DNA from: an uncultured bacterium
GTDB lineage: Bacteria; Hydrothermota; Tepidihabitantia; Tepidihabitantales; Tepidihabitantaceae
Assembly (NCBI GenBank): GCA_964597845.1
Contig: CAZQZR010000001.1
Span: forward strand, 6,722-70,721
Direction of reading: 5' to 3'
Length of the DNA stretch: 64,000 nucleotides
The stretch's first letter is position 1. Each line of letters opens with the position of its first letter. The notes below the pieces were generated by a model. It had not been told where the DNA came from, made no database searches, and saw nothing but the letters and a program-made list of their open reading frames with translations. Shown piece by piece: positions 7,391-60,558 of the stretch. The translations under genes were made by a program, and so were the position numbers.

Positions 7391-7463
7391 TGGGCCGTGC
7401 GGGATTCGAACCCGCGACCACCGGATTAAAAATCAGGTGCTCTGCCAACTGAGCTAACGGCCC
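7391..7463 (-). tRNA. tRNA-Lys (anticodon UUU)
   Basis: Reverse complement reads GGGCCGTTAGCTCAGTTGGCAGAGCACCTGATTTTTAATCCGGTGGTCGCGGGTTCGAATCCCGCACGGCCCA. 7-bp acceptor, TTCGAAT T-loop, anticodon loop TTTTTAA. CCA not encoded. Confidence 0.9.
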
Positions 7464-7472
7464 TAACCACTT

Positions 7473-7501
7473 CAGATTGCAGATTGTAGATTGCAGATTG
7501 C
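7473..7501. repeat. heptamer array CAGATTG x4 in the tRNA-Lys/tRNA-Leu spacer
   Basis: CAGATTGCAGATTGTAGATTGCAGATTGC; a related CAGATTGTAGACTACAGATTAGAG lies at 7645-7668 in the next spacer. Confidence 0.85.
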
Positions 7502-7542
7502 CGAAGTCAAAGGGAAATCAGGAATCAACAATCTTGAGCTGA

Positions 7543-7630
7543 TGCCGGGGGCCGGACTTGAACCGGCACGACCCGTATTCGGGTCAAGGGATTTTAAGTC
7601 CCTGGCGTCTGCCTGTTCCGCCACCCCGGC
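7543..7630 (-). tRNA. tRNA-Leu (anticodon UAA), long variable arm
   Basis: Reverse complement reads GCCGGGGTGGCGGAACAGGCAGACGCCAGGGACTTAAAATCCCTTGACCCGAATACGGGTCGTGCCGGTTCAAGTCCGGCCCCCGGCA. Anticodon stem AGGGA/TCCCT, loop CTTAAAA. Confidence 0.9.
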
Positions 7631-7733
7631 CATAACGGACATTTCAGATTGTAGACTACAGATTAGAGAAGTCAAAGAGACGGGGCCCAACCGGGGAATC
7701 GAGAATCGCCAGCCCAAAACCGACAATGAAAAG

Positions 7734-7805
7734 AGGCGGCTTCGGGATTTGCACCCGAGCGTAACGGTTTTGCAGACCGTCGCCTTACTGCTTGGCTAAG
7801 CCGCC
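7734..7805 (-). tRNA. tRNA-Cys (anticodon GCA) with non-canonical D-loop/T-loop
   Basis: Reverse complement reads GGCGGCTTAGCCAAGCAGTAAGGCGACGGTCTGCAAAACCGTTACGCTCGGGTGCAAATCCCGAAGCCGCCT. Perfect 7-bp acceptor, anticodon stem ACGGT/ACCGT with loop CTGCAAA, U73 discriminator typical of tRNA-Cys. T-loop is TGCAAAT rather than TTCRANT. Confidence 0.75.
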
Positions 7806-7887
7806 GCTCCGGAAAGGGTAGAAAACGAAGTGCAAGGGACAAACTGGAAACTCCGGCGTTCGGAGTTCGCACTTCGCACTTGAAACA

Positions 7888-7960
7888 AGCGGGAGACGGG
7901 ATTTGAACCCGCGACCCCTACCTTGGCAAGGTAGTGCTCTACCAACTGAGCTACTCCCGC
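7888..7960 (-). tRNA. tRNA-Gly (anticodon GCC)
   Basis: Reverse complement reads GCGGGAGTAGCTCAGTTGGTAGAGCACTACCTTGCCAAGGTAGGGGTCGCGGGTTCAAATCCCGTCTCCCGCT. Anticodon stem CTACC/GGTAG, loop TTGCCAA. Confidence 0.9.
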
Positions 7961-8070
7961 AACAACGGGACAATAGTGAATTGAGGGCAGTGAAGAGTGA
8001 AGTTCGTTCCGGTGCCGTGTGCTGCTTCACTATTCTCTACTCCATATTCCCCACTCCCTATCCTTGTATC

Positions 8071-8143
8071 CGGCCCCAACGGGAGTCGAACCCGTGTCTT
8101 CACCTTGAAAGAGTGATGTCCTGAACCGCTAGACGATGGGGCC
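8071..8143 (-). tRNA. tRNA-Glu (anticodon UUC)
   Basis: Reverse complement reads GGCCCCATCGTCTAGCGGTTCAGGACATCACTCTTTCAAGGTGAAGACACGGGTTCGACTCCCGTTGGGGCCG. Anticodon loop CTTTCAA. Layout resembles E. coli tRNA-Glu. Confidence 0.9.
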
Positions 8144-8210
8144 ACCACTCTTCCGGGCCCGGGTGCGAAGCCGCCCGGCCCGGGTAAATCTAGCCCGCCG
8201 GGGCGGGTTG

Positions 8211-20497: not shown

Positions 20498-21883
20498 TCA
20501 ACGTGGTTCTCCCCCGCTTATTCCCCTCTTTAACTTCTCCAGACGTGCCGCAAAGGCCGGGTCCTTTTCTCGGAGTTCGTTCACCCTCTTGATGGCATGC
20601 ATCACGGTTGTGTGGTCTTTGTCGTCGAACAGTGAGCCGATTTCTTTCAGTGATAGACTAAGCGTTGTCCGGAGTACATACATCGCAACTTGTCGCGCCA
20701 GAGCAAGCTGCTTAGTTCGGCCGCCGTTGGTTATTTCATTGAGGGAAACCCCGAAGTGGTCGGCGCAGGCCTTAATGATCCGGTTGTGGTCAATCGGTTC
20801 ATCCTCTTTGACCAGGTCCTTGAGTGTCTCTTGAGCAAGTTGAATCGTAATGGGCCGACTGTCGAGCGAGGCAAGCGCAAGCAGCCTCACCCAGCTTCCT
20901 TCAAGCGCCCGTACGCTGGACCGGACCCGTGCGGCAATGAAGTACGCGACGTCATCGGGCAGGTCAGCGCGGTCCTGGACCGCTTTCTGCTTCAGAATGG
21001 CAATCCGGGTTTCAAGTTCAGGAGGCTGGATATCGACAACCAGGCCGGAACCAAGCCGGGAAGCCAGCCGGCTTTCCAGCGTGGGTATATCCTGTGGCGG
21101 GCGGTCACTGGTAAACACAACTTGGCTACCGGCATCGTGGAGCGAGTTGAAGATGTAAAACACCTCTTCCTGCAGGCGTTCCTTGCCGACCAGGTAGTGG
21201 ACGTCGTCGAGCATCAACAAGTCCAGCCCGCGGTACTTGTTCTTAAACTCAAGCCGGGTGTTTTTCTCGATTGCTTGAATCAGCTCGATGAACAAGTCAT
21301 CGGCGGCGGTGTAGTAAACCTTGAGGCTGGGTTTCACCGAGAGAGCCATGTTGCCGATGGCCTGCACCAGGTGGGTCTTGCCCAGGCCGACGCCACCGTA
21401 GATGAAAAGCGGGTTGTAGCTGGCCCCGGGGCGCTCTGCCACGCTGCGGGCGGCCGCCGCTGCGAACCGGTTTGACTCGCCGACTACGAAACTGTCAAAA
21501 GTGAGGTGGGCCTGGAGTCGGTACCCGTTCGGTCTCAAGACGGGACGGCGCACCGGAGAGCGTCGTATCACGAGGCCTGAGTCGCCAGCGTCGCGCGGCT
21601 GGAAGGACACGGCCATTTCCTGTCCAGAGACGCCGGTTAGCGCTGCCCGGACCTCGGCAGAGTACCGCTGGCTGATCCAGTCGGCGAAAAAGGAGTTGGG
21701 GACTTCTACCTCCAATGTGCCGTTCCTTACGGCGCGTCCCCTGGTTGGCGCAAGCCAAGTCTCGAAACCCTCTTGGCTTATGCGCGGTCGTACATAGTCG
21801 AGGATATCAGTCCACAGTTTTCCAGCATCAGGCACAGCATCATGCCCGATGCGCGATTGCACTTCGCTGTCAGCCACACCCAT
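20498..21883 (-). CDS. dnaA: chromosomal replication initiator protein DnaA
   Basis: ORF 20498..21979 trimmed to ATG 21883 (MGVADSEV...). Walker A GGVGLGKTHL. C-terminal DnaA-box-binding domain ARQVAMYVLR...KDHTTVMHAIKRV. Confidence 0.9.
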   Translation of the reverse strand: MGVADSEVQSRIGHDAVPDAGKLWTDILDYVRPRISQEGFETWLAPTRGRAVRNGTLEVEVPNSFFADWISQRYSAEVRAALTGVSGQEMAVSFQPRDAGDSGLVIRRSPVRRPVLRPNGYRLQAHLTFDSFVVGESNRFAAAAARSVAERPGASYNPLFIYGGVGLGKTHLVQAIGNMALSVKPSLKVYYTAADDLFIELIQAIEKNTRLEFKNKYRGLDLLMLDDVHYLVGKERLQEEVFYIFNSLHDAGSQVVFTSDRPPQDIPTLESRLASRLGSGLVVDIQPPELETRIAILKQKAVQDRADLPDDVAYFIAARVRSSVRALEGSWVRLLALASLDSRPITIQLAQETLKDLVKEDEPIDHNRIIKACADHFGVSLNEITNGGRTKQLALARQVAMYVLRTTLSLSLKEIGSLFDDKDHTTVMHAIKRVNELREKDPAFAARLEKLKRGISGGEPR

Positions 21884-21957
21884 CTGCAGCCCCTTTCGGA
21901 TGATAGCACAAATAAACTTAGGCGGCCCTACGAAAGGAAACCCACAAACCCAGCATG

Positions 21958-21978
21958 TTATCCACAGAGTTGTCCACA
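21958..21978 (+). promoter_or_regulatory. two DnaA boxes in the dnaA leader
   Basis: TTATCCACA (21958-21966, perfect consensus) and TTGTCCACA (21970-21978, 8 of 9), separated by 3 nt. Confidence 0.7.
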
Positions 21979-22075
21979 TCGTCGCTCAGCATGTTGCTGA
22001 GGCGAAAAGCAAAACGCCCGCGGCGTAGGTCTGTTCAACGAACCGGATTGTAGGGGTCGCTAGTTGCCTAAGGGC

Positions 22076-22187: not shown

Positions 22188-24551
22188 CTAACGCGTCAGA
22201 ATTCCTGCGCCGCCGGCGGCAGCGACTTGACCCAGCGCGACGCCTCCGTCGTTGAGCGGTACCAGGTGGTTCCAGTAGACTCGGCGGCCGGGATGGCGAA
22301 GTCTGGAGGAAACGCAATGGCGAAGCAGGGAATTCTGAAAGGAGCCGCCGGAAAGGCACACCGTCTTAACGTGGTGCCATTGGCAGAGAACTTCGGCAAG
22401 ACGAACGGCTGCCAAGGCAATTGTGTTGTGGAACTTGGCCGAAATAGTGGCGGGACTAACGCCGGCGGATGTTTCACGTGAAACGTCAACAAGCAACGGC
22501 TCGGGTCGAATGAGAGAGGGGGAGACCGACACATCCAACACGTCAGGCGTAAACCAATGGCCAACCTCTTTCCGGTCTGCGATAGCCTCCAAGGCTGTTG
22601 GCGCCTGTCCATCGAAGGACGCGGACGAGGCTACACCGACGGTGGCGGCAACGGCGTCGAAGAGGCGACCGAGAGAGGAGGTGCGCAGACCGGTTGGGTT
22701 CGGCCGACGGTCATGCAGTCGCCCACGCATGGGACTCACAGCGCCGCTCACCTGCCGCATGTATGCGCGAGCCACCCGGGACGGATCGGCCACTTCGTCG
22801 CCGGCCCCGGCGAATCGTAGATAGCCCAAGTGCCCGACTCTGGCCCAGTTAAGGTCTTCCTGCACCAGAAGAAACTCGCAACCCCACACAGCACCGTCAG
22901 TTCCGTACCCGTTCCCGTCGAAGGCGAGACCCAGCACCGGCCCGGCCAGGCCATGCTCCGCCATCACCGACAGTATGTGCGCGTAGTGGTGCTGGATCCT
23001 GACCAGCGGTAACCCCAGCTTGCGGCCCAAGCTCTCGGCAAGGCGGGTTGACGCGTAGTCCGGGTGCGAGTCACACGCAATGACCTCAGGCTGTATACCG
23101 GTCCACTTTGTATAGCGCGCGAACGTATCAAGCCAGAATCTCTCGCCTTGGCCGGTGGCGACCGTACCGATGTGCGGACTCATGAACGCCCGGGTTCCTT
23201 TCGCCAAAGCGAAAGCGTTCTTGAACTCGGCACCGACTGCGAGGACGGCATGTTTCACGTGAAACATCTCGGCAAGCGCAAGTGGCTGGGGCGCGAAGCC
23301 GCGGGCCCGGCGGACTAGGCTAAGCCATGGACTGGCGCTACCTGATGAATCTCGGGCCCCGGCGCGGCCCGGCGAGCAATTGGAGCCCTTGCCGTCGTCG
23401 TCGACGAGGACGACGGAGTCGTCGCAGCGGTTGGCAATCGGTCGGTTGTGGGTCAGAATCAGGTCGGGCACACCGCCCACTTCCTTTGCCAAATCCGCAT
23501 CGTCTGCGGTGATGGGGTTGTCTTTGCGGTTGGCGCTTGTCATCACAAGGACCGCCGGCTTCCCGGTGAGTCGTCGCAGGTGGTCGAAGAGGAGGGCGTG
23601 CAGTGGGGTGTAGCAGAGCATGACGCCCAGGCGGGAGTTGCCCGGTGCTACCGAATCGGCGAGATGGAGCGCGGGCGCCGGCCTTCTTGGTAGTAGGACA
23701 ATCGGGGCGGCGGGGGAGAGCAGTGTCCTGCGGGCGCGAGCGCTGACGCGGGCGATTAGGCGGGCGACCGCCGGAGTCTGGCACATGAGCGCGAGGGGTT
23801 TGTCCGGTCGGTTCTTGCGTTTTCGCAGGCGTGCGACGGCACGGTCGTTGGTGGCGTCGCAGGCGAGATGGAAGCCGCCGAGGCTCTTGATTGCGAGTAT
23901 CCGGCCGTGGAGTAGTGCCCGCGCCGCGTCTTCGATGGGAGTTGTTGTTGGCCTGGGGTTGGCACGCGGGCCGAGGAGTTGCAGTCTTGGTCCGCAGTGC
24001 TGGCAGGCGATTGGCTGCGCGTGGTAGCGCCGGTCCGAGGGGTCGGTGTATTCGCGCCGGCACTGGGGGCACATGTGGAAGCGTGCCATGGTTGTGCGCG
24101 GCCGGTCGTATGGGAGCGCCTGGATAATGGTGTAGCGGGGGCCGCACTGGGTACAGTTGGTGAATGCGTAGCCGTGTCGCCGGTCGTGCGGGTCGGATAT
24201 TTCTCTGCGGCAGTCCGGGCAGGTGGCAAGGTCGGGGAGGACGTGGATTGGCGAGTTGCGAGTCACGAGTTGCGAGTTGCGAGTTGGTTTGATGGTGAAG
24301 GTCGCGTAGCGGCGCGTCCGCACGCGCGCGACACGGTATGAGGAGTAGGCCGCGAGCGGCGGGGGGTCGGCTTTCAGCCGATCCAGGAGTCGCCGCGCTT
24401 GTCCGCCCTGCGCGATGATGATGACGCCCCGGGTGGAGTTGGCGACGTACCCGCGGACGCGTAGGGAGTTAGCCAGGCGGTAGACGTAGGGCCGAAATCC
24501 GAGGCCCTGGACCTGGCCCCGGACGAGAGCCTTAAGAGCCGGGACGGTCAC
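22188..24551 (-). CDS. hypF: [NiFe]-hydrogenase maturation carbamoyltransferase HypF
   Basis: Acylphosphatase domain VRGQVQGLGFRPYVYRLA, two zinc-finger pairs (CPDCRREI..CTQCGPRY; CPQCRREY..CQHCGPR), then YrdC-like and Kae1-like domains. Confidence 0.9.
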   Translation of the reverse strand: MTVPALKALVRGQVQGLGFRPYVYRLANSLRVRGYVANSTRGVIIIAQGGQARRLLDRLKADPPPLAAYSSYRVARVRTRRYATFTIKPTRNSQLVTRNSPIHVLPDLATCPDCRREISDPHDRRHGYAFTNCTQCGPRYTIIQALPYDRPRTTMARFHMCPQCRREYTDPSDRRYHAQPIACQHCGPRLQLLGPRANPRPTTTPIEDAARALLHGRILAIKSLGGFHLACDATNDRAVARLRKRKNRPDKPLALMCQTPAVARLIARVSARARRTLLSPAAPIVLLPRRPAPALHLADSVAPGNSRLGVMLCYTPLHALLFDHLRRLTGKPAVLVMTSANRKDNPITADDADLAKEVGGVPDLILTHNRPIANRCDDSVVLVDDDGKGSNCSPGRAGARDSSGSASPWLSLVRRARGFAPQPLALAEMFHVKHAVLAVGAEFKNAFALAKGTRAFMSPHIGTVATGQGERFWLDTFARYTKWTGIQPEVIACDSHPDYASTRLAESLGRKLGLPLVRIQHHYAHILSVMAEHGLAGPVLGLAFDGNGYGTDGAVWGCEFLLVQEDLNWARVGHLGYLRFAGAGDEVADPSRVARAYMRQVSGAVSPMRGRLHDRRPNPTGLRTSSLGRLFDAVAATVGVASSASFDGQAPTALEAIADRKEVGHWFTPDVLDVSVSPSLIRPEPLLVDVSRETSAGVSPATISAKFHNTIALAAVRLAEVLCQWHHVKTVCLSGGSFQNSLLRHCVSSRLRHPGRRVYWNHLVPLNDGGVALGQVAAAGGAGILTR
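24251..24287. repeat. octamer array GAGTTGCG inside hypF
   Basis: GCGAGTTGCGAGTCACGAGTTGCGAGTTGCGAGTTGG encodes TRNSQLVTRNS between the acylphosphatase and zinc-finger domains. Near-identical to 35830-35853. Confidence 0.85.
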
Positions 24552-35389: not shown

Positions 35390-35565
35390 ACCTTGATGCG
35401 ACTTCCTGCGACACGACAGGCGATTCCTGACGCGCGGGTAGCTGCCGACCAAGAGACCATCTCGCTTCGCTCATGGCGGCTCAGCGCCGTCTATATGTAG
35501 TGGTCAGGAACGGCCTGAGGCACAATTTCCCCGTAGGGGGTACGGACTGGAGACCGCCCCCCGGG

Positions 35566-35825
35566 TTGCTTTCAAGCGAGGTTTTGAACGAGGTTTGAAA
35601 TGTGCTTTGAACCGAGCTTTTGATTAAGCTTTTCCGCGAGCTTTGAACCAAGCTTTGAAACAAGCTGTTTCTTGAGCTTTTCCTTGAGCTTTGAGTCGAG
35701 CTTTGCGAGAAGCTTTGAAGTAAGCTTTTGTCCGAGCTTTGAAATGAACTTTCAAGTGAGTTTTTCAAGAAGCTCTTGAGTGAGCTTTCTCGGGAGCTTT
35801 CCGGCGAGCTTTGTGGAAAGCTGTT
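35566..35825. repeat. 12-nt-period array (about 21 units) of GAGCTTTS octamer plus 4 variable nt
   Basis: GAGGTTTTGAAC GAGGTTTGAAAT GTGCTTTGAACC GAGCTTTTGATT AAGCTTTTCCGC GAGCTTTGAACC ... GAGCTTTCCGGC GAGCTTTGTGGA. Preceded by CCCCCCGGGTT and followed directly by an octamer array. Confidence 0.85.
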
Positions 35826-35867
35826 GCGGGTTGCGAGTTACGAGTTGCGGTTGGCGGGTTGTGGGTG
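35823..35867. repeat. octamer array GAGTTGCG (intergenic copy)
   Basis: GTTGCGGGTTGCGAGTTACGAGTTGCGGTTGGCGGGTTGTGGGTG. Confidence 0.85.
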
Positions 35868-41571: not shown

Positions 41572-42333
41572 ATGTTACCGGATGCATACGTCCGTTCGAT
41601 TCTGGCCAAGTACGAACTGCCGAGCGGCGAGGGCTCGCCGGCTGAGCTCGCCGCGGCCGAGCTGAGGCAACCGATTACCGAATGGGCCGGTCGGTTCCTG
41701 CTGGACATTCGGTTCTGCGGGTCGTATGCGAAGGAAACACGGATCCGGGGCGCGACCGACATCGACCTGTTGATTTCGCTCGGACCGCGCACGCCGCTGG
41801 ACATCGACAAGCTCTACGACCGCTTCTTCGACTTCATGAAGCGCCGCGGCTACAAGCCCCGACGCCAGAGCGTCACCGTCGGCGTGACGCATCACGGTCT
41901 GATGGTGGACCTGATACCGGCCAAGCAGGAATGGGGCGGCGCGAACGACCACCGGATTTTCGAGACCGAACATCAGCGAATCACCCGAACCAATTTCGAC
42001 ACGCACCTCCAGGTTGTGAAGGAATCGGGCACCATCGAGGAAATCCGTCTGCTGAAAATCTGGCGCACCCTGCGTAACCTCCGCCTGCCGTCGTTATGCC
42101 TCGAACTGGCCGTGATGGACGCCCTGCGCCGTCAGGCGCGTCACCAGCCGGCGGCAAACATGGAGGTCGTGCTGCGGTATCTTAAGGACGTCCTGCCGAG
42201 CGCGCCGATTCGGGACCCGGCCAATTTTGAGAACCTTGTCTCCGACGACCTGCTGAAGCACGAGAAACTGGCTATCTCCGAGGCTGCGGCCGAGAGCCTG
42301 AAGCACTCCGACTGGGCCAAGATCGTCTGGTGA
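41572..42333 (+). CDS. minimal Pol-beta-fold nucleotidyltransferase, CD-NTase/OAS-like
   Basis: 253 aa. GGAGGAGG SD. GSYAKETRIRGATDIDLLISL (GS..DxD), third acidic strand MVDLIPA, then IRLLKIWRTLRNLRLPSLCLELAVMDAL, resembling the OAS/CD-NTase helical lobe. Confidence 0.6.
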   Translation: MLPDAYVRSILAKYELPSGEGSPAELAAAELRQPITEWAGRFLLDIRFCGSYAKETRIRGATDIDLLISLGPRTPLDIDKLYDRFFDFMKRRGYKPRRQSVTVGVTHHGLMVDLIPAKQEWGGANDHRIFETEHQRITRTNFDTHLQVVKESGTIEEIRLLKIWRTLRNLRLPSLCLELAVMDALRRQARHQPAANMEVVLRYLKDVLPSAPIRDPANFENLVSDDLLKHEKLAISEAAAESLKHSDWAKIVW

Positions 42334-45636: not shown

Positions 45637-46587
45637 ATGAAAGCAATCGTATGCACGAAGTACGGGCCACCGGAAGTTCTTCAGCTCAAAGAGGTAGAGA
45701 AGCCTACTCCCAAGAGCAATGAAGTCCTGATAAAGATTCATGCGGCAGCAGTAACAGTCTCGGACTGTATAGTTCGAAGTGGCAAAGTGAATATCCTGCT
45801 ATGGATCCCCATGCGCATATTTGTTGGTTTCAGAAGGCCAAGAAAACCGATACTGGGGTTGGAGTTAGCCGGGGAAATTGAAGCAATAGGCAAGGACGTA
45901 AAACGATTCAAGAAAGGTGACCAGGTTTTTGCATTTGCCGGCAAGCGTTTTGGTGCTTATGCCGAGTACACTTGTCTGCCGGAAGACGGATTGTGCATGC
46001 CTGCAGACAGTCTTGTGGCACTAAAACCATCCAATGCGACCTATGAGGAAGCCGCCGCTGTTCCTTCCAGGGGAACTCTAGCATTGTATTTTCTTAGAAA
46101 AGGAAATATCCAAAACGGGCAAAGAGTTCTCATCTATGGAGCTTCCGGAGGGGTAGGTACTTTTGCGGTACAGCTTGCCAGGTACTATGGGGCAGAAGTT
46201 ACCGGGGTGTGCAGTACCGCGAATCTAGAATTAGTGAAATCGCTGGGAGCCGACAAGGTAATTGACTACACAAAAGAGGACTTTACGAACAGAGGAAAGT
46301 CCTATGACCTTATTTTTGATGCCGTCGGAAAGAGATATGGCTCAAAACTACAGCGCAAGAAAGCGCTGACTCCGACCGGGAAATACATGTCAGTCGATGA
46401 TGGAACACCAAAGATATGTGTCGAGGATTTGGTTTCACTCAAGGAGCTGGTTGAAGCGGGAAAGATAAGACCAGTCATTGATAGAACGTATCCCCTGGAG
46501 CAAATTGCCGAAGCTCATAGATATGTTGACAAAGGGCACAAAAAGGGAAATGTAGTGATAACCGTGGGGCACAACAATAAGATCTGA
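45637..46587 (+). CDS. zinc-type/MDR-family NAD(P)-dependent alcohol dehydrogenase or quinone oxidoreductase
   Basis: ORF 45622..46587; homologue-like start [15 protein letters not shown] at 45637. Rossmann [16 protein letters not shown]. Markedly lower GC than its neighbours. Confidence 0.8.
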
Positions 46588-46588
46588 T

Positions 46589-46690
46589 AGAAAGTAAGCC
46601 TTCGAGTAAGCCTTGGAAGGAACAATCCAGGAGACAGTGCGGCGAGGTTTCTAGTGAGCATTCAGAGGAGCTTTGAAGAGAGCTCTTGCG
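46589..46690. repeat. short 12-nt-period array related to the GAGCTTT family
   Basis: GAGTAAGCCTTC GAGTAAGCCTTG GAAGGAACAATC ... GAGGAGCTTTG AAGAGAGCTCTTG, immediately after the ADH stop codon. Confidence 0.6.
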
Positions 46691-46733
46691 CGTCCGTAGT
46701 CCTGACTTCTGCCGTTTGAAACCGGGCCTCTGA

Positions 46734-46795
46734 CTTGGCCCCGACCCCAAGCCCCGATTCCCTCACACCTGGCCCCAATCCCTGGCCCCTCCCGG
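46734..46795. repeat. C-rich word repeat (GGCCCC/CCCCAA)
   Basis: CTTGGCCCCGACCCCAAGCCCCGATTCCCTCACACCTGGCCCCAATCCCTGGCCCCTCCCGG. Confidence 0.6.
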
Positions 46796-46850
46796 CTCGC
46801 GCCGAACGCCGTCCCACACTGCCGCCTCTAACAGGGCGCGAAGATACTTA

Positions 46851-46891
46851 TTGACAACCGGGATAACATTAGTAGTCTTTTATTACTAATG
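46851..46891 (+). promoter_or_regulatory. promoter plus overlapping palindromic operator (copy 2), upstream of the TrmB-family regulator
   Basis: TTGACA (46851-46856), 16 nt, TAGTCT (46873-46878). Perfect inverted repeat CATTAGTA (46867-46874), 9 nt, TACTAATG (46884-46891). Confidence 0.6.
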
Positions 46892-46927
46892 GTCGTGCCA
46901 AACAACAATGAACCTAAGGACTAGCAG

Positions 46928-47854
46928 ATGAAAGAAAGTGTGATTGACCATCTCAGCGAACTTGGTTTCTCGGGCGCCGAGGCGGCCGTGTACGTGGCCC
47001 TGCTGCAGGAGCCGAAGGCCACCGGGTACCGGATTGCACGGCTCGCAAGCAAGCCGGTCCCGAATACCTACAAGGCGCTGGACGCCCTGCACAAGAAGGG
47101 CGCGATTATCGTGGATGAAACCGGCCGGGGCCGGACCTACACCGCTCTGCCGGTGAGGGAGTTCTTCGAGGCGATGAAGCGGCGGCTGGATACGATGCGC
47201 GTCCATCTGGAGGAAGAGTTGAAGGGGTTGACCGCGGGCACGGTCGAGGGCGGGATATACCAGCTTACTACACCGGACCAGGTCTACGGCCGGGCAAAAA
47301 CGATGCTGCGCGAGGCCAAGGGCGTTGCTCTGGTCGACATCTTCCCGAGGCCGCTTGTGCGCCTGCGGGGTGACCTGGAGGCGGCGGCGAAGCGGGGCCT
47401 GAAGATATGGATGATGATCTACGAGCCGGGCGAAGTGAAAGGCTGCGAGGTGATTGCGCCGAAGAAGCCGGCTTCGCAACTCGAAGTCTGGAAGGTGGAC
47501 TGGATGAACGTCGTCGTGGACAGCCGCGAGGCGCTGTACTCGCTGCTGAAGAAGGACGGGGCCGCGGTCGAACGGGCGGTGTGGATAAAGGACCCGCACC
47601 TGGCGCTGCAGGCGTTCAGCGGCATGTTCCACGAGTTCGCCTTTGACCGGGCCAAGCAGTTGATCTGGGCCGGGAAGTCCAAGGACGAAGCCACGGCCGA
47701 GGTAATGAGATTCAGCCGTCGGTACGTGAGCGACGACAATTTCTACGAGGTCATCGGGCCATGGATAGATATGGAGAAGATTCGCGAACTGCGACGCCGG
47801 GCCGAACGCGAGGTGGCGGCGCGCCGGCGCAACACGGCGAAAGAGAAGAAATGA
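46928..47854 (+). CDS. TrmB-family transcriptional regulator
   Basis: 308 aa. N-terminal winged HTH LSELGFSGAEAAVYVALLQEPKATGYRIARLASKPVPNTYKALDALHKKGAI. Confidence 0.75.
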   Translation: MKESVIDHLSELGFSGAEAAVYVALLQEPKATGYRIARLASKPVPNTYKALDALHKKGAIIVDETGRGRTYTALPVREFFEAMKRRLDTMRVHLEEELKGLTAGTVEGGIYQLTTPDQVYGRAKTMLREAKGVALVDIFPRPLVRLRGDLEAAAKRGLKIWMMIYEPGEVKGCEVIAPKKPASQLEVWKVDWMNVVVDSREALYSLLKKDGAAVERAVWIKDPHLALQAFSGMFHEFAFDRAKQLIWAGKSKDEATAEVMRFSRRYVSDDNFYEVIGPWIDMEKIRELRRRAEREVAARRRNTAKEKK

Positions 47855-48996: not shown

Positions 48997-49073
48997 AGGG
49001 GTTCTGGGTTTCAGGGGTTCCGGGGTTCGGGTCGGGCACTAGAACCCTTGAACCCGCGAACCCCTGAACCCTG
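48997..49073. terminator. long imperfect hairpin built from inverted GGGGTTC / GAACCCC octamer arrays between convergent genes
   Basis: Left arm GGGGTTCTGGGTTTCAGGGGTTCCGGGGTTCGGGTCGGG, loop CACTAG, right arm AACCCTTGAACCCGCGAACCCCTGAACCCTG. Lies between the DUF4389 stop (48935) and the YfiM-like stop (49077). Confidence 0.6.
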
Positions 49074-49076
49074 TTC

Positions 49077-49502
49077 TTAGAAGCGGTGGATGAAGGCGAA
49101 GTAGCCGACGCAGATACCGGCGGCATCAGCCACCAGGTCCTTCCATGAGAAGTGTCTCGACGGCCCGGCCAGGTCGTTGAATTCCTTGCAGACACCCAGC
49201 GTCAGAGTGCCGCCCAGGGCAATACCGGTCGGCCAGGGAGATGGCATGTTGACCCGGTTGGCGCTCAGGTGATACGCCGCGCCGACGGTGACGAAGCTGG
49301 CCGAAAAGTGCCAGAACTTGTCCATCGCGAACCAGCGGTCGGTCTCGGACCGTGGTCGAGTGGTCGAAAGGGCAAGTGACCTAGTGGTCGAGTGGTCGAG
49401 TGGTCTAGTGGCGGACGAGCAGGGGAGCGGGCGAGGAAGGGAGTCGCGCAGGCTGGCCGGAACCGACTGGGCGAGGACGGTCAGCACAAGGAGCAGATTC
49501 AT
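49077..49502 (-). CDS. YfiM/DUF2279-like small envelope protein with repeat-derived linker
   Basis: 141 aa. DKFWHFSASF...CKEFNDL...FSWKDLVADAAG resembles YfiM. The linker SSATRPLDHSTTRSLALSTTRPRS is encoded by the AGTGGTC array at 49351-49414. Confidence 0.55.
   Translation of the reverse strand: MNLLLVLTVLAQSVPASLRDSLPRPLPCSSATRPLDHSTTRSLALSTTRPRSETDRWFAMDKFWHFSASFVTVGAAYHLSANRVNMPSPWPTGIALGGTLTLGVCKEFNDLAGPSRHFSWKDLVADAAGICVGYFAFIHRF
49351..49414. repeat. AGTGGTC octamer array inside the YfiM-like CDS
   Basis: CGTGGTCGAGTGGTCGAAAGGGCAAGTGACCTAGTGGTCGAGTGGTCGAGTGGTCTAGTGGCGG. Confidence 0.85.
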
Positions 49503-49656
49503 CGTCTGATTGTCGCAAGTCCCGCCGCCGAGTCAAGCTGAGGCGTCCGGAAACCGACATACAACCGCCGAGACCCGGAACGGAGCATCCGCAGATTACG
49601 CAGGCTACACGGATTCCGCTCCACTTTCCGCCAATCGACATCGACAATCGGGAAGC

Positions 49657-49926
49657 GAAAGCTCGCTAGAAAGCTCACCGGAAAGCTCCCTGGAAAGCTC
49701 ATCAGAAAGCTCCTTCAAGAGCTCATTTCAGAGCTTAGTCCAAAGCTCAATCCAAAGCTCATTTCACCGCTCAGCGCATAGCTCACGCCAAAGCTCAGGC
49801 CATCGCTTCTTCCATCGCTCAGCGCAAAGCTTCGCCGAAAGCTCCGGTCAAAGCTCTTCTGAAAGCTGGACTCAAGGCTCATTTTAGAGTTCTTTTCAAG
49901 GCTTGGCTGAAAGCTAGCTCGAAAAC
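49657..49926. repeat. 12-nt-period array (about 22 units) of SAAAGCTC octamer plus 4 variable nt (reverse orientation of the 35566-35825 array)
   Basis: GAAAGCTCGCTA GAAAGCTCACCG GAAAGCTCCCTG GAAAGCTCATCA GAAAGCTCCTTC AAGAGCTCATTT CAGAGCTTAGTC CAAAGCTCAATC CAAAGCTCATTT ... GAAAGCTAGCTC. Followed by AACCCGGGGGG. Confidence 0.9.
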
Positions 49927-50241
49927 AACCCGGGGGGTACGGGAGGGTATTCTGCTGGAAGCGAGGATAGTGGATTGAGAATAGGGAAGTTAGGACCCGT
50001 CTCGGGAAGCGGGGGAATGTGTGCTATGATACACATCTGAGAAGACGAAAACGAGTGGGAAGCCTGACCGGGGATTTCAGGAGATGCGGAGACTCCTGAC
50101 GCGCGGCTGCCGATGGAGGAACGTGACCGCTGCCCGTATGCCGTTAGCTGTAAGCCGCTAGCCGTCGGCCGCTCGTGCCGCGTGATTGTGCGCTGACTGG
50201 AACTGCAGACTCCCGGCGAAGCCGCGCCTCCCCGTCCGTTT

Positions 50242-50276
50242 CCTCTCACTAGACCACTGGACCACTCGATCACTTC
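50242..50276. repeat. GACCACT octamer array (inverted partner of 49386-49410)
   Basis: CCTCTCACTAGACCACTGGACCACTCGATCACTTC; its reverse complement GATCGAGTGGTCCAGTGGTCTAGTG matches GGTCGAGTGGTCGAGTGGTCTAGTG at 23 of 25 positions. Confidence 0.8.
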
Positions 50277-50560
50277 TTTCTGTATCCTTTTTCTGACACG
50301 AGAGTTGCGCGAATCAGACACATTGACCTTCTGCCTTTCGCGGCCCAGATTCTAACCATCATCTTCTCGGGCAGTTACACAAGCACCTGACCGGCTCCTT
50401 GTCAGGCACGGGCCGTGCTCTACTTCCGTCCGATGAGGCACGAAAATCAAGACCTCGGCACAAGTCGTAGGTCCGTGCTTCATCCGGCTGCACCGAACCG
50501 AGGCGACAGGGACATCCGCGGTGCAGGATGTCCGAAGACGCGATACCCAAGGAGGAACGC

Positions 50561-55640: not shown

Positions 55641-55818
55641 GAAGTGATCCAGTGGTCTGGTGGCCCAGTGGTCGGGCGGTGTAGTGGTCAAGTGGTCTTG
55701 TGGTCCAGTGATCTAGTGAGGAAGAGACGGCGGCTATCGGTTCAGGAGAGTTCTGATGAAATTCGAGCCATGCACGAGACCGGTCGGAGGTGGTCTAGTG
55801 GTCCAGTGGTCTAGTGAG
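55641..55818. repeat. two AGTGGTC(N) octamer arrays (55641-55720, 55789-55818) downstream of the ApgM-like gene
   Basis: GAAGTGATCCAGTGGTCTGGTGGCCCAGTGGTCGGGCGGTGTAGTGGTCAAGTGGTCTTGTGGTCCAGTGATCTAGTGAG ... GGTGGTCTAGTGGTCCAGTGGTCTAGTGAGG. The second array contains the gene's stop codon. Confidence 0.9.
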
Positions 55819-57064
55819 GAGCGGACGCAAGCTCGCGACCGAGGAGAGTCCGGATGAAAGCAGACCCGCGGAGTAGGCCAAGGGAACCGGAAGCGCAGGC
55901 GACCTCGTCGTAGGACTGAACCGAGTCCGGCTCAAGGCGCGGGTTGAGTATGGCGACCGGAACCGGGCCGTGAACGTGATTGCCCTTCGCGACTGGCGTG
56001 AGGTGGTCGGTCAGGACGGCCACTGTGGCCTCGATCCCCTTGTCTTCAATCCCGTTCATCACGCGCGCGACCAGGCGCGAGTCGAGATACTCGATGCCAA
56101 GCACCTTCTGTTTCACATCCCGCGCGTGGCCGGCTTCGTCCGTCGCCTCGACGTGCACGTAGACAAAGTCATGGTCCTCAAGAACGTTCAGGCAGGCGTC
56201 GGCTTTGCCCTCGTAGTTGGTGTCAATCAGGCCGGTTGCACCGGGGACGTCAATCACGTCGAGCCCGGCATAGACGCCCAGCCCCTTAATCAAGTCAACC
56301 GCAGAGATGACCGCGCCGCTGATGCCGTACTGCTCTCTCATGGTCTTCATCTTCGGCTTGCGGCCCTGGGACCAGAACCAGATCGAGTTAGCCGGGTCCT
56401 TGCCGGCCTTGACTCGGGCTTCGTTGACTGAGTGTCGGGACAGCAAATCCCATGAGCAGCGAATCATGTCGTTCAGCCGGTCGACCGTCGGCTTGGCCTC
56501 GTCGGACTTCGGGACAATCATCAGGTCCTCGACCAACTCGCCGACGTGGTCGTGGGGCGGAAAGCACTCGAAGTCGGTAGAGAGAGTGGGACCAAGTGGC
56601 TGAGGGTCATCTGACGAGAGAAGGAGGAGGTGGCGGTAGGAGATACCGGGGAAGAAGCGAACCTCGTCACAACCAAGGTAACGGTCAACATGACGGATGA
56701 GTTTGTGGGCCTCCTCAGTGGAGATGTGACCCGCCGAGTGATTCTTGATGCGGCCGTCGGCAATGCAGATAAGGTTACAGCGCATGGCGATGTCGGTGTC
56801 GCGCAACTTGACGCCCATTGAGGCGGCCTCGATGACGCCGCGGCCCTGGTAGCATTCGCGCGGGTCGTAACCGAGCACGGTGAGATTCGCGACTTCCGAG
56901 CCGGGCGGCATGTCGTCGTCCACCGTGATGAATGAGCCGCAGCGGCCGAGACGAGCAATGCGGTCGATGGCAGGCTTATTCGCGACTTGGAGTGGAGTCT
57001 TATCGCCGAGTTCGGGGATGGGGAAATCGGCCGCGCCGTCGGCGAGGAAGATGATGGAACGCAT
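55811..57064 (-). CDS. cofactor-independent phosphoglycerate-mutase homologue (ApgM family; proposed homoserine kinase type)
   Basis: 417 aa. MRSIIFLADGAADFPIPELGDKTPLQVANKPAIDRIA is typical of ApgM-like metalloenzymes. Located in an operon with thrC. Confidence 0.75.
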   Translation of the reverse strand: MRSIIFLADGAADFPIPELGDKTPLQVANKPAIDRIARLGRCGSFITVDDDMPPGSEVANLTVLGYDPRECYQGRGVIEAASMGVKLRDTDIAMRCNLICIADGRIKNHSAGHISTEEAHKLIRHVDRYLGCDEVRFFPGISYRHLLLLSSDDPQPLGPTLSTDFECFPPHDHVGELVEDLMIVPKSDEAKPTVDRLNDMIRCSWDLLSRHSVNEARVKAGKDPANSIWFWSQGRKPKMKTMREQYGISGAVISAVDLIKGLGVYAGLDVIDVPGATGLIDTNYEGKADACLNVLEDHDFVYVHVEATDEAGHARDVKQKVLGIEYLDSRLVARVMNGIEDKGIEATVAVLTDHLTPVAKGNHVHGPVPVAILNPRLEPDSVQSYDEVACASGSLGLLRGSAFIRTLLGRELASAPH

Positions 57065-57197
57065 AGTGGTCTAGTGGTCCAGTGGTCTAGTGGTCGAGTG
57101 AAGGGAGAAGAATGTGGACGAGTGGTCCAGTGGTCTAGAGGTCAAGTGACGGGAGAAGACAGTGGTTAAGTGGTCCAGTGGTCGAGTGAGCACGTGG
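57065..57197. repeat. AGTGGTC(N) octamer arrays filling the whole M42/ApgM-like spacer
   Basis: AGTGGTCTAGTGGTCCAGTGGTCTAGTGGTCGAGTGAAGGGAGAAGAATGTGGACGAGTGGTCCAGTGGTCTAGAGGTCAAGTGACGGGAGAAGACAGTGGTTAAGTGGTCCAGTGGTCGAGTGAGCACGTGGTC; shows a higher-order unit of about 50 nt. Confidence 0.9.
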
Positions 57198-58256
57198 TCA
57201 GCGCTTCCTGCCGTTCGGCTCAACGTAAGCGAGAACCAGCCGCACGGTCGCGGCCAGCGCCTTGCGGTGGGTCCTTTCTAGGTTGTGCGAAGCGTTGATT
57301 CCCGGACCAATCAGTCCTGTGATGGCGTCCAGCCCGGCCCGCACCGCCACCGCTGCGTCCGAGCCATAAAACGGGTAGATGTCGACTTTGTATGGTATCT
57401 TCTGCGTCCGGCACAGCTTCACCAACCGCTGCCGTAGTGCGTAGTCAAACGGCCCGGTCGAGTCTTTGGCGCAGATGCAGACCGAGTATTCATCCGATTC
57501 CTGTCCCTTGCCGACTGCGCCCATGTCAACGGCAACCAACTCGCCGACTTCCGGCGGGATGCCGGCCGAAGCGCCGAAACCCACTTCCTCCGACGTGCTG
57601 AAGAGAAAGTGTGTGGCTAGTCGCGGCCGCGAACCGGAATCGGCTAGAGCCTTGAGCGCGCCGAGCAGGCAGGCAACCCCGGCCTTGTCGTCGAGGTGGC
57701 GGGTCTTGATGAACCCGGTTTCGGTCACCTCGCAGCGCGGGTCGAAATGGACGTAGTCGCCGACCGCGACGCCGAGCTTGGCGACCTGCTTTTCGTTCCG
57801 CACCTCGGCATCGAGCCGGATTCTCATGTTATCGAATTCCCGCTTGGCATCGGATATCTTCTTGCTGACATGGGCAGACGGCTCATCGAACAGAATGGTG
57901 CCGCGGAAGAGCTTGCCTGCGCTGGTCTCGACCGTGACGTACTCGCCCTCGACCGTGGCCAGCGCGTAGCCGCCGACCGCCGTGAATACGAGCGACCCGT
58001 CACTGCCGAGTTCCTTCACCATCGCGCCTAGGGTGTCGACATGGGCGGTGAGCGCCCGATGCGGGCCGGTCTCCCGGCCCTCAAGCGTTGCCAGCAGCGC
58101 ACCACGTCCGGTGCGCTTGTGCCCCACGCCCATCCGGGTCAGTTCCTTTTCGACATAGCTGACAGCCACGTCGGTGTGGCCGGCCAGGCTCGGCGTCTTC
58201 ACCAGCCGCACGACCTGTTCGACAACGTAATCGGTCAGGCGGTTATCATTTGGCAT
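57198..58256 (-). CDS. M42-family aminopeptidase/endoglucanase-like metallopeptidase
   Basis: 352 aa. LTAHVDTLGAMVKEL, RHLDDKAGVA and FSTSEEVG motifs. Confidence 0.75.
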   Translation of the reverse strand: MPNDNRLTDYVVEQVVRLVKTPSLAGHTDVAVSYVEKELTRMGVGHKRTGRGALLATLEGRETGPHRALTAHVDTLGAMVKELGSDGSLVFTAVGGYALATVEGEYVTVETSAGKLFRGTILFDEPSAHVSKKISDAKREFDNMRIRLDAEVRNEKQVAKLGVAVGDYVHFDPRCEVTETGFIKTRHLDDKAGVACLLGALKALADSGSRPRLATHFLFSTSEEVGFGASAGIPPEVGELVAVDMGAVGKGQESDEYSVCICAKDSTGPFDYALRQRLVKLCRTQKIPYKVDIYPFYGSDAAVAVRAGLDAITGLIGPGINASHNLERTHRKALAATVRLVLAYVEPNGRKR

Positions 58257-58340
58257 AGTGGTCTAGTGCTCCAGTGGTCTAGTGGTTAAGTGATAGGAGG
58301 AGATAGTGGTCAAGTGGCCCAGTGGTCACGTGATCAAGTG
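58257..58340. repeat. AGTGGTC(N) octamer array between the four-helix ORF and the M42 gene
   Basis: AGTGGTCTAGTGCTCCAGTGGTCTAGTGGTTAAGTGATAGGAGGAGATAGTGGTCAAGTGGCCCAGTGGTCACGTGATCAAGTG. Confidence 0.9.
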
Positions 58341-58757: not shown

Positions 58758-60105
58758 ACACTCTCTGCAGGAAGCCCTTGAACCAATGGTAGTCATTCGG
58801 CCCGTGTTCGTAGTGCTCGGGTCTGGCATCAAGCCCGGCGAGCGACGGCGGCAGCGGCGGGTCGACGCCTAGCAGGTGTTGAATCTCCTCCGGGAACTTG
58901 GCCGGGTGAGCGGTTTCGATGGAGATGGCCAGAGGAGAGTTGCGAGTGGTCAAGGATTCCAAGTAGCGCTCGAGGCCGGCCCAGCCGACCGCGCCGTGCG
59001 GTTCGAGCATGGTTTTGTAATTGCTCCAGGCGTCCTTGATTGCCTGCCGGGTCCCCTCGTCGTCAATGCTCACCGGATATATGTCGCGCCGCATGGCCGC
59101 AAAGTCGGGCGGCTTCGAGATGCTGCCCTGTTCATCCATCACCCCGCCGTACAAGGCGACAAGCCGCGGCAGGTTGGATGGATGACCGACGTTCATCGCG
59201 TTGGAAATGCAGACACGCGACGGCACAATCCTCTCGTACCTGCCGGTGGCGACAAACTTCGGGAACTCATCGTTCGCGTTGGTCGCGATGACGAACCGGT
59301 CGACCGGCAGGCCCATGCGCCGGGCAATCAGGCCGCCGCAGATGTCGCCGAAGTTGCCGGACGGGACCGAGATGATTGCCGCTTCGTCGTTCTCCTGCAG
59401 CCGGGCCCAAGCGTACAGGTAGTAGACCGCCTGCGGCAGGAGCCGGCCGATGTTGATGGAGTTGGCCGAGGAGAACCGGATGCGCCCGAGTTCCGGGTCG
59501 GTGAAAGCGCGCTTGACCAGAGCCTGACAGTCGTCGAACTGGCCGTCGACGCCGATGACCGTAACATTGCCGCCGAGCGTCGTCATCTGCTTGCGCTGGC
59601 GGTCCGAGACTTCCTTAATAGGAAAGAGGACGACCATCGAGATGCGGTCGACGTTATGGAACGCGTGGGCGACCGCGGAGCCGGTATCGCCGGACGTGGC
59701 GGTCAGGATAACCAACTCGCCGCCTTCCTGCGCGAGGAAGTAGCGCATCATCCGAGCCATCATCCGGGCCGCGAAGTCTTTGAAGCTCGCGGTCGGGCCT
59801 TGGTCGAGGCGCATGAGGAACGTGCGGCCATAGACGCGTTCGAGCGGCACCGCGTAGTTGTAGCACTCGGCGCAGAGCCGCATCAGTTCATCGTCGGGAA
59901 TCAGGCCTTCCGTGTAGCGCCGCAGCACGGCAAAGGCGATTTCCGGGTACGGCTTCTCGCGGAACCCGATTATCTCGTCGAGCGGTATGCGAGGAATCTC
60001 GCGCGGCATGTACAGGCCCTTGTCCGGGGCTTGGCCGGTGAGAAGCGCGGTGCGTAAGTCGACGTCGGGGGAGGACAGGTTGGTGCTGTATAGAAGAGGG
60101 TTCAC
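58750..60105 (-). CDS. thrC: threonine synthase
   Basis: 451 aa. PLP-lysine motif GPTASFKDFAARMM, SGDTGSAVAH and SGNFGD. AGGAG 7 nt upstream of GTG 60105. Confidence 0.9.
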   Translation of the reverse strand: MNPLLYSTNLSSPDVDLRTALLTGQAPDKGLYMPREIPRIPLDEIIGFREKPYPEIAFAVLRRYTEGLIPDDELMRLCAECYNYAVPLERVYGRTFLMRLDQGPTASFKDFAARMMARMMRYFLAQEGGELVILTATSGDTGSAVAHAFHNVDRISMVVLFPIKEVSDRQRKQMTTLGGNVTVIGVDGQFDDCQALVKRAFTDPELGRIRFSSANSINIGRLLPQAVYYLYAWARLQENDEAAIISVPSGNFGDICGGLIARRMGLPVDRFVIATNANDEFPKFVATGRYERIVPSRVCISNAMNVGHPSNLPRLVALYGGVMDEQGSISKPPDFAAMRRDIYPVSIDDEGTRQAIKDAWSNYKTMLEPHGAVGWAGLERYLESLTTRNSPLAISIETAHPAKFPEEIQHLLGVDPPLPPSLAGLDARPEHYEHGPNDYHWFKGFLQRVFK

Positions 60106-60512
60106 GGCTTGGCTCCTGGAGGATTCGAGGATTCAAGGATTCGAGGATTCGAGTGCCGGCGTTCCAGTGACTTTATCAGTGACATCATCATTCGTTCCAC
60201 TTCGCGGATATCCTCGGATAGCTTGCCATATTCATCCAGCTTGAGGTATTCAAGGTCGCGAGCTAGCATCGTCTGGGTCTCCAGTTCGCTGTTCGAAGCG
60301 TACGCGAAGCGCAGCGAACGTAGGTAGTCACCAGTCGTGCTGCGGCTGTATCCCTCCGCGATATTGGACGGAACCGAGACCGCGGCCCGGCGCATCTGAG
60401 AGGTTAGGCCGTAGCGCTCGTCGGCCGGGAACTTCCTTGTCGACCGATAGACCTGCAGGCAGATTCGGTACGACTTCTGCCAGACCAGCAGGTCGCGGTA
60501 ATTCCTTAGCAC
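60102..60512 (-). CDS. four-helix-bundle protein (23S rRNA intervening-sequence protein / Avd family), second copy
   Basis: 136 aa. YRDLLVWQKSYRICLQVY...YGLTSQMRRAAVSVPSNIAEGYSRST..DYLRSLRFAYAS..E. The C-terminal RHSNPRILESSNPPGAKP is read-through of the AGGATTC array. Overlaps the thrC start by 4 nt. Confidence 0.8.
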   Translation of the reverse strand: MLRNYRDLLVWQKSYRICLQVYRSTRKFPADERYGLTSQMRRAAVSVPSNIAEGYSRSTTGDYLRSLRFAYASNSELETQTMLARDLEYLKLDEYGKLSEDIREVERMMMSLIKSLERRHSNPRILESSNPPGAKP

Positions 60513-60555
60513 GCTCCGCCCACTGGAATCCTAGAATCCTCGATTCCTCGAACCC
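60118..60555 (-). mobile_element. putative IVS-like cassette: second four-helix-bundle ORF enclosed by inverted AGGATTC octamer arrays
   Basis: Left arm 60118-60155 is GGAGGATTCGAGGATTCAAGGATTCGAGGATTCGAGTG. The reverse complement of right arm 60521-60555 is GGGTTCGAGGAATCGAGGATTCTAGGATTCCAGTG. About 23 of 27 positions match in the aligned core. Confidence 0.45.
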
Positions 60556-60558
60556 TTC

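Follow-up and report, generated by a model that had tools for sequence, protein, structure and literature searches.

Several described bacterial systems resemble, each in part, the element reported here, an array of 12-nt units with the core AAAGCTC that is present in a 64,000-nt stretch of DNA from an uncultured bacterium (contig CAZQZR010000001.1, positions 6,722 to 70,721; this whole stretch is called the window). The CsrB/RsmZ sponges are, like these arrays, non-coding and about 300-400 nt long; they hold roughly 18-22 short motifs that titrate an oligomeric RNA-binding protein, and several paralogues occur per genome. However, their GGA motifs lie in hairpin loops at irregular spacing, whereas the body of the arrays is unstructured, keeps an exactly 12-nt register, carries AAAGCUC or GAGCUUU as its motif and probably occurs in tens of copies per genome. 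The arrays do not contain such GGA loops, searches of Rfam gave nothing relevant (gathering threshold for the window and 18 loci; E-value threshold for 8 loci), and we know of no link between the arrays and CsrA. Centromere and iteron arrays (parC of R1, tubC of pBtoxis, the omega-protein heptads) share with the present arrays the head-to-tail arrangement of short direct repeats at strict spacing, and they are cooperatively bound into a filament; the repeats measure 11 bp in parC and, with the same period as here, 12 bp in tubC. These arrays have 4-10 units, belong to plasmids or phages, lie beside partition or replication genes and occur once per replicon, whereas those reported here number about 23 units each, are present in many copies on the chromosome, have no gene linked to them and carry a polar tail rich in hairpins. 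Fixed spacing was found in our arrays (an exact 12-nt phase over 17-27 units, with insertions and deletions of whole units only); adjacent partition or replication genes and a restriction to one or a few arrays per replicon were not.

The BOX, BIME, REP and MIRU elements likewise occur in many intergenic copies, are modular and are placed independently of orientation, and pneumococcal BOX has a variable number of tandem boxB units between different end modules. The units of BOX, BIME and MIRU, however, are 35-60 nt long, form stable hairpins and vary freely in internal copy number, whereas the arrays have 12-nt units, an unstructured body, a median of 23 units and cores conserved across species; the modular build is shared, and hairpins are found only in the tail and not as palindromic units. 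CRISPR repeats are 25-36 nt long, with spacers of similar size and cas genes nearby. In TIGR arrays, which lie beside a Nop-domain tas gene, the unit measures 36 nt and contains two 9-nt spacers and two repeats of 8-12 nt that alternate (PMC12045711). Both alternate short conserved segments regularly with variable ones, as the present arrays do, and both are transcribed and protein-bound, but the 4-5 nt spacer reported here is too short to guide and is homologous between copies. A TIGR-Tas system was rejected because there is a single 12-nt unit type and no recurrent adjacent gene, and CRISPR because the 12-nt unit comprises a core of 7-8 nt and a spacer of 4-5 nt, with no recurrent family among 74 flanking proteins; the original prediction, made from the letters of the window, had rightly judged the period too short for CRISPR, and the neighbours are diverse housekeeping genes. 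A type III toxin-antitoxin RNA (ToxI-like, with repeats of about 36 nt upstream of a toxin gene) was also rejected, since the units are of 12 nt and no conserved gene lies downstream. The nearest published phenomenon is that of the TAACTGA and STRR short direct repeats, which precede start codons (TAACTGA in Beggiatoaceae, cyanobacteria and Bacteroidetes; PMC4679880) and resemble octamer repeats of the window rather than the 12-mer elements. Such repeats consist of 2-6, rarely as many as 43, perfect 7-mers placed immediately before the start codon. In the 12-mer arrays, by contrast, each unit joins a core to a spacer, the length is fixed, a dedicated tail is present, and neither orientation nor distance is related to starts; the octamer arrays of the window agree with the description. 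In Rfam and the searchable literature, we found no description of the 12-mer family. The family is a previously undescribed one, akin to sponge RNAs, DNA binding arrays and dispersed mosaic repeats, and there is a real chance that it stands further from all of these.

Arrays, tails and copies of the element family

The arrays are a dispersed, polar, non-coding element family of candidate division WOR-3 that is vertically maintained. In the window, array A (49657..49932, plus strand), read in 12-nt steps from 49657, consists of 22 consecutive in-phase units with zero indels, each made of the core (G/C/A)AAAGCTC and about 4 variable bases; a degenerate 23rd unit, GAAAACAACCCG, overlaps the junction, and the array is of the A-type, with CATCGCTY units in its middle. 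Array B (35562..35825, minus strand, B-type) yields, when reverse complemented, 22 units in perfect phase with the same core. Both the dodecamer array and its inverted copy had been predicted, and both are present as described. The pattern AAAGCTC-N5-AAAGCTC, with at most two mismatches, matched 35 times in the window, against a mean of 0.32 in dinucleotide shuffles, none of which (0/100) reached 35. This two-core search also revealed a third array, previously overlooked, at 46590..46686 on the minus strand, with about nine degenerate units in 12-nt phase and no recognisable tail. The sequence AACCCGGGGGG occurs exactly twice in the window, at 49927-49937 (plus) and 35557-35567 (minus), each time immediately after the last unit; the common junction proposed for the two copies is part of the element. 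By chance alone, 11-mers that match with one mismatch would not be uncommon in the window; it is the recurrence of the junction across the family, as CCC-N2-3-GGGGGCRG with the same C-run/G-run type as in arrays A and B, that indicates that it is real. Four independent assemblies contain array B with 100% identity and two contain array A unchanged, and the interiors of the arrays are the break points of several other assemblies. Tandem Repeats Finder showed that the window is rich in further intergenic tandem repeats of 7, 8 and 9 nt.

A scan of species-representative genomes with three consecutive cores gave clusters of matches in WOR-3 metagenome-assembled genomes (MAGs), with at least 12 loci in one MAG; the scattered, unrelated matches outside WOR-3 were homogeneous coding tetrapeptide repeats within open reading frames (ORFs) of other phyla. 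A family-specific signature revealed 95 further loci in freshwater, sediment and peat metagenomes, with at least 19 loci in one metagenome, and the homologues of the nitroreductase beside an array are named candidate division WOR-3. The same signature had no match in the viral contigs of IMG/VR, for which reason a phage origin was rejected. The merged MAG and metagenome set contains 65 distinct arrays. Among the 61 that are complete and unique, the unit number ranges from 17 to 27 with a median of 23, and lies between 21 and 24 in 46/61; a single 12-nt phase runs from end to end in every array except one, and 11 arrays are unchanged between two or three independent metagenome contigs. Printed in register, the arrays of the WOR-3 MAGs are homologous along their length, with an ordered series of units that recurs: it begins with GAAAGCTCGCCG GAAAGCTC..., passes in its middle through GTTC AAGAGCTYNTTT GAAAGCTCATTT CAAAGCAC... 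and ends with GAAAGCTARCTC GAAAGCTGC. Spacer identity between copies is 0.51 in the best register and 0.34 off register, and spacers that look random within an array are therefore inherited position by position. The original prediction had called the spacers essentially random; the core is indeed kept while they drift, but it had missed their position-by-position homology between copies. Position-specific core variants (AAGAGCT, AAAGCAC and ATCGCTY) are conserved across copies as well. With 65 distinct arrays, orthologous loci and homologous units, the proposal of an element family rather than local slippage proved correct.

Similarity between copies starts exactly at the array head and extends 24-250 nt past the opposite end, and the head and tail ends are unrelated in sequence. 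The tail is found on one side of the array only, is about 100-200 nt long and rich in hairpins, and falls into at least four classes. Counts of tail motifs beside arrays and elsewhere were 15 to 0, 10 to 1, 5 to 0 and 9 to 1; because these motifs are almost exclusive to the neighbourhood of arrays, tail and array form one unit. The tail of array A (49927..50134, plus strand) belongs to class T3 and comprises the junction CCCGGGGGGTACGGGAGGG, a purine-rich block GTGGATTGAGAATAGGGAAGTTAGGA and a hairpin ATGTGT-loop-ACACAT. It is common to loci L123, L132, L140 and L146, and both L146 and L162 match the window over 49643-50134; the hairpin has compensatory variants (AUGUGUA/UACACAU versus AUAUGUA/UACAUAU), and the motif GTGAAGTTAGG is found beside arrays only (5 to 0). 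The tail of array B (35490..35567, minus strand) belongs to class T2. On the plus strand, it comprises the distal block TCTATATGTAGTGG at 35490-35503, a variable hairpin P1 at about 35500-35523 and a GC-rich hairpin P2 of 12 bp at about 35530-35565, the 3' arm of which is the CCCCCCGGG junction. Eighteen T2 tails were aligned, and individual folds give P1 and P2 in most sequences; the T2 core motif also occurs only beside arrays (15 to 0). The T1 tails possess a near-invariant hairpin, GGGG-UCGC-CCCC.

Other repeat modules adjoin the arrays, all of them G+T-rich on the GAGCTTT strand. A heptamer module of the GTTGCGG/GCGAGTT type (35823..35866, plus strand) directly adjoins the head of array B and follows array heads at L121, L124, L128, L145, L159, L160, L184, L186 and L197 as well; its occurrence away from arrays as well, for example at 24251-24286, marks it as a module in its own right that is often found next to them. 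Beyond the head of array A lies a nonamer module of the AATCTGCGN type (GGAATCCGTGTAGCCTGCGTAATCTGCGGAT..., 49560..49617, minus strand), which is present on the equivalent side of the arrays in L119, L123, L128 and L186, and which was found 16 times near arrays and 6 times elsewhere. At L014, L128 and L148, and likewise at L172 and L191, the head-side flanks are orthologous (84-92% identity), yet the tail classes differ; at L091, the head flank of L120 is joined to the tail flank of L149. These tail swaps reflect either recombination between copies at the arrays or chimeric metagenome contigs.

The arrays do not encode protein. Stops were counted in six frames, on 14 and then on 56 arrays, and the means per array over the 56 were 1.1, 1.6 and 2.0 for the frames of the AAAGCTC strand and 7.0, 7.7 and 2.1 for those of the opposite strand. 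Frame F0 (xSSx), with its mean of 1.1, has zero stops in 23/56 arrays, and T is avoided before AAA, which would avoid TAA; both features could be expected of a coding sequence. However, each frame has stops in many arrays, and in at least 25 of them an in-frame stop precedes the best frame, which lacks a start codon. The public gene calls contain nothing over array A, which lies in a 1026-nt intergenic region (49503-50528), or over array B, which is located between two plus-strand genes. In addition, the composition of the arrays is unlike the pattern of G+C at third codon positions in the genome, and the genuine coding look-alikes of other phyla are homogeneous and lie inside ORFs. A coding role was rejected on the six-frame stops, the gene calls and a Pfam search of the ORFs overlapping array A. 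The array had been described as open in several frames, which applies only in a loose sense: the xSSx frame stays open in array A as far as 49887, yet none of the frames is preserved as an ORF. The hypervariable low-complexity coding module that had been suggested is not supported over the 56 arrays.

Conservation of core, register and unit number

Orthologous loci were defined by the similarity of their flanks with the arrays masked, and between species these flanks show 78-92% nucleotide identity. The arrays are retained at orthologous loci, and each difference in length is exactly 12 nt. Core identity at these loci is 0.82-0.96, while spacer identity is 0.79-0.96 where the flanks are 92% identical, 0.62-0.71 at 84-90% and 0.52 at 78-80%; on this comparison, the spacers decay in step with flank divergence, roughly neutrally. 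Judging from typical indel-to-substitution ratios, a neutral register would predict several small indels per orthologous pair, and none was seen. The motif, the exact 12-nt register and the unit number are thus constrained, and the letters of the spacers are nearly free. The original prediction had proposed to follow unit number and spacer turnover in relatives, and had named absence from close relatives and free variation in length as grounds for abandoning it. What we found instead was a tight unit number, decaying spacers and retained cores at orthologous loci. Neither presence/absence polymorphism nor an empty site was found among the loci fetched, a limited sample. Orthologues of the nitroreductase (80-87% identity) lie in a rearranged neighbourhood with no array there, which as a synteny test of the window's own loci carries no information, and the metagenome loci are not syntenic with the window.

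A position weight matrix was built from 1249 units. The core frequencies were A.96, A.77, A.90, G.92, C.98, T.90 and C/T.72/.22, and the resulting unit motif, V-A-A-A-G-C-T-Y-V-B-B-B, is asymmetric and holds about 11 bits per unit. T is excluded at positions 0 and 8, which flank the core (3-4%), and A is avoided at positions 9-11. Overall, the AAAGCTC strand is rich in C+A and poor in G (A.29, C.29, G.20). The repeat body folds no better than shuffled sequences on either strand (z-scores +0.1 and -0.5), which is what a linear binding track would show.

A proposed protein-binding platform and its alternatives

Constraint on motif, register and unit number but not on spacers is the signature of a multivalent platform with a fixed register, and because the arrays possess a polar tail of their own, rich in hairpins, the active form is more likely to be a transcript. 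Our preferred reading, to which we assign a probability of roughly 0.4, is that the element would be a register-dependent multivalent protein-binding platform, probably acting as a transcript, that is, as a sponge or scaffold RNA. About 23 head-to-tail 12-nt units and a structured tail of about 100-200 nt form one non-coding polar element, on which an oligomerising, sequence-specific nucleic-acid-binding protein would read the motifs in a fixed 12-nt register. The active form would most likely be a transcript of roughly 350-450 nt. Of the roles named in the original prediction, a decoy for an oligomeric binding protein with a 12-nt register would agree best with the pattern of selection. The GAGCUUU sense is weakly preferred; in this sense, promoter and structured 5' leader would come from the conserved tail, and about 23 sites for the protein would lie along the unstructured repeat body. 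Among the variant cells of the T1 hairpin, five read as G.U in the GAGCUUU sense but as A.C when the strand is switched; one shows the reverse. The 28 arrays with both flanking genes resolved lie between divergent (9), convergent (6) and tandem (13) genes, as random placement gives, which argues against a dedicated leader, trailer or terminator; random orientation and diverse neighbours, among them tRNA synthetases, ribosomal protein S13, AcrB, RecO and a topoisomerase, fit a self-contained unit and speak against an effector-linked array.

Several observations weigh against this reading. First, RNAalifold on 15 T2 tails gave a weak consensus with covariation not above shuffles, the T2 counts of G.U versus A.C (21 vs 16) leave the strand ambiguous, and the lower folding energy in the GAGCUUU sense, seen in 13/15 sequences, is confounded by G+U richness. 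Second, promoter and terminator scans of the elements gave nothing assignable with confidence. Third, there is no recurrent neighbour gene: the 74 flanking proteins hold 94 Pfam families, none of which occurs in more than two proteins. Fourth, the 7-mer motif is rare outside the arrays, with no obvious competing set of mRNA targets visible, and the conserved position-specific core variants are left unexplained by a purely generic sponge. Finally, a strict register is better precedented in double-stranded DNA (dsDNA) arrays, such as iterons, parC and tubC, than in bacterial RNA sponges.

Some candidate signals were considered and rejected in the course of this analysis. A conserved, sigma-70-like GGTTAAGC-N16/17-ATAAGA in T1 tails was dropped because the other T1 variants lack the -10-like box although their 29-nt distance to GGGGTCGCC is preserved. 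Also in T1 tails, a hammerhead-like GAAAC...GAUGAG has the wrong spacing. No conserved ORF begins at the conserved ATGAGACAG, and scattered single motifs as mRNA targets were rejected because the 7-mer is rare outside the arrays.

The main alternative, and a serious one, is that the element works as dsDNA, a track bound cooperatively head to tail with a 12-bp footprint to give a nucleoprotein filament of defined length, which is possible, although we hold it somewhat unlikely. The tail palindromes would then be a nucleation site, and the role would lie in chromosome organisation, segregation, cohesion, or a block to transcription or replication. An exact 12-bp register with whole-unit indels only is a hallmark of iteron- or centromere-type arrays, and the core has a palindromic centre, AGCT; the placement of the arrays is independent of orientation and neighbour genes, the strand evidence for RNA is weak, and the window adjoins dnaA and the GC-skew minimum, with three arrays within 30 kb. 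However, the motif is asymmetric, T being excluded where a palindrome would require it, and at least 20 dispersed copies per genome and polar hairpin tails with compensatory changes are atypical of centromeres and iterons. No DNA-binding gene is linked to the arrays. Arrays A and B, moreover, are opposite in orientation within one replichore, so that a replication polarity was rejected.

It is also conceivable, but doubtful, that the arrays define a new class of register-locked tracks, of RNA or of DNA, on which a protein polymer of defined length, helical or built of stacked rings, is templated by about 23 evenly spaced motifs. Such a track would act as a molecular ruler or scaffold encoded in sequence, for which no bacterial counterpart has been described, and the alternative tails would be class-specific loading or regulatory domains, in tens of copies per genome across a candidate phylum.

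We consider it clearly unlikely that the elements are selfish or structural dispersed repeats in the manner of BOX, MITE or BIME, that is, repeats that would have spread through WOR-3 genomes and now be mainly substrates of recombination, without a specific host function and with a periodicity that is a relic of unit duplication. Such repeats would be expected in many copies per genome at arbitrary intergenic sites and orientations, as is seen here, and the modular build with alternative tails and adjacent heptamer and nonamer modules would suit them; the differing tail classes at orthologous heads (L014/L128/L148; L091) suggest recombination between copies, and a transposase is among the neighbours in 2/74. 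Dead copies, however, would lose core and register at the rate of the spacers, whereas cores, register and unit number are held at orthologous sites with 78-92% identical flanks while the spacers decay. Terminal inverted repeats and target duplications were not seen, the loci fetched gave no presence/absence polymorphism, and the tail swaps could be assembly chimeras.

Only a slim chance is given to a cis-acting element in the untranslated regions (UTRs) of neighbouring mRNAs. It could be a leader, a trailer, a site for Rho loading or a stabiliser, or could enhance translation, and the RNA would be the C/A-rich AAAGCUC strand. The composition of this strand, C+A rich, G poor and predicted to be unstructured, agrees with such a role. 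There are gene 3' ends within 13-60 nt of an array head with AAAGCTC in the sense direction, followed by the GC-rich tail hairpins, an arrangement that resembles a 3' UTR and terminator, and C/A-rich octamer repeats reach start codons in the same genome, like the TAACTGA repeats (PMC4679880). The absence of orientation bias among the 28 arrays tells against it; with arrays between convergent as well as divergent genes, neither a leader nor a trailer fits all copies, and the T1 hairpin variants favour the opposite strand. Last, a coding tetrapeptide-repeat module or a neutral microsatellite, with which whole-unit indels would agree, is very improbable and effectively already refuted, by the stops in all frames on the one hand and, on the other, by a tight unit number and arrays identical between samples, the opposite of neutral behaviour, with units that are individually distinct and homologous between copies instead of homogenised.

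If the preferred reading of a protein-binding platform is confirmed, WOR-3, an uncultured group with almost no known regulatory biology, would carry tens of conserved non-coding copies of an element in which selection acts only on a 7-nt motif, the exactness of a 12-nt register and a repeat number of about 23. This would point to an abundant, new nucleic-acid-binding protein and to a layer of regulation or chromosome organisation. Sequence by itself predicts how the partner should behave, namely by binding head to tail every 12 nt, about 23 times, which makes the family a clean test case. The family also shows that the short tandem repeats of these genomes are not mere mutational noise. In addition, assemblies break at the arrays, and these may mediate rearrangements, a concern for MAG quality in WOR-3.

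Neighbouring genes and other repeats

The 14 kb separating arrays A and B encode an FG-GAP/T9SS protein, a nitroreductase, a metallophosphatase, ADH, TrmB and TonB. The idea that the two arrays are the ends of a mobile element with cargo was rejected, because these are ordinary, unrelated genes between independent copies of the family. The lowest G+C of the window, 0.50, is found at 46000-47000; this part takes in the last portion of the ADH gene, the region upstream of a TrmB-family regulator (46928-47854) and the degenerate mini-array. A DnaA gene (Bac_DnaA, DnaA_N, DnaA_C) is encoded at 20498-21979 on the minus strand, at the minimum of the cumulative GC skew near 20 kb, with two DnaA-box-like 9-mers at its 5' end (21958-21978). 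The window probably spans the region of the replication origin, with the three 12-mer arrays within 30 kb on one side.

Tandem octamers of the form (N)GACCACT were observed at 57064-57200, 58257-58340, 55643-55816 and 49352-49411 in the minus sense, and at 50247-50274 in the plus sense. Whole intercistronic regions consist of them; at the genes that begin at 57064 and 58256 they reach the ATG itself, and a Shine-Dalgarno sequence is lacking. This octamer family is also present at WOR-3 loci such as L121 and L169. At 48997-49028, there are four AGGGGTTC octamers, followed 14 nt on by four GAACCCTT octamers (49042-49072) that are nearly their reverse complement; the pair could form a hairpin of about 30 bp just downstream of a DUF4389 gene. 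Similarly, four copies of GAGGATTC (60119-60153) and four of GAATCCTC (60526-60556) stand inverted around a small ORF (60102-60512, minus strand), and one of these two arrays is directly upstream of the next gene start, at 60105. Five tRNA genes (Lys, Leu, Cys, Gly and Glu) are clustered at 7391-8144 on the minus strand, with heptamer repeats in their spacers, for example CAGATTG x4 at 7473-7501.

The gene at 41572-42333 (plus strand) encodes a 253-aa protein with a weak, sub-threshold match to the SMODS nucleotidyltransferase domain (E = 0.007). Genes for two proteins without a Pfam match and for a metallophosphatase come next, and the group may be a defence-type operon. Elsewhere in the family, a match to a group II intron domain (RF00029, 50 bits) was found at positions 1609-1715 of L062, about 1.2 kb from a 12-mer array in the WOR-3 MAG UBA2258.

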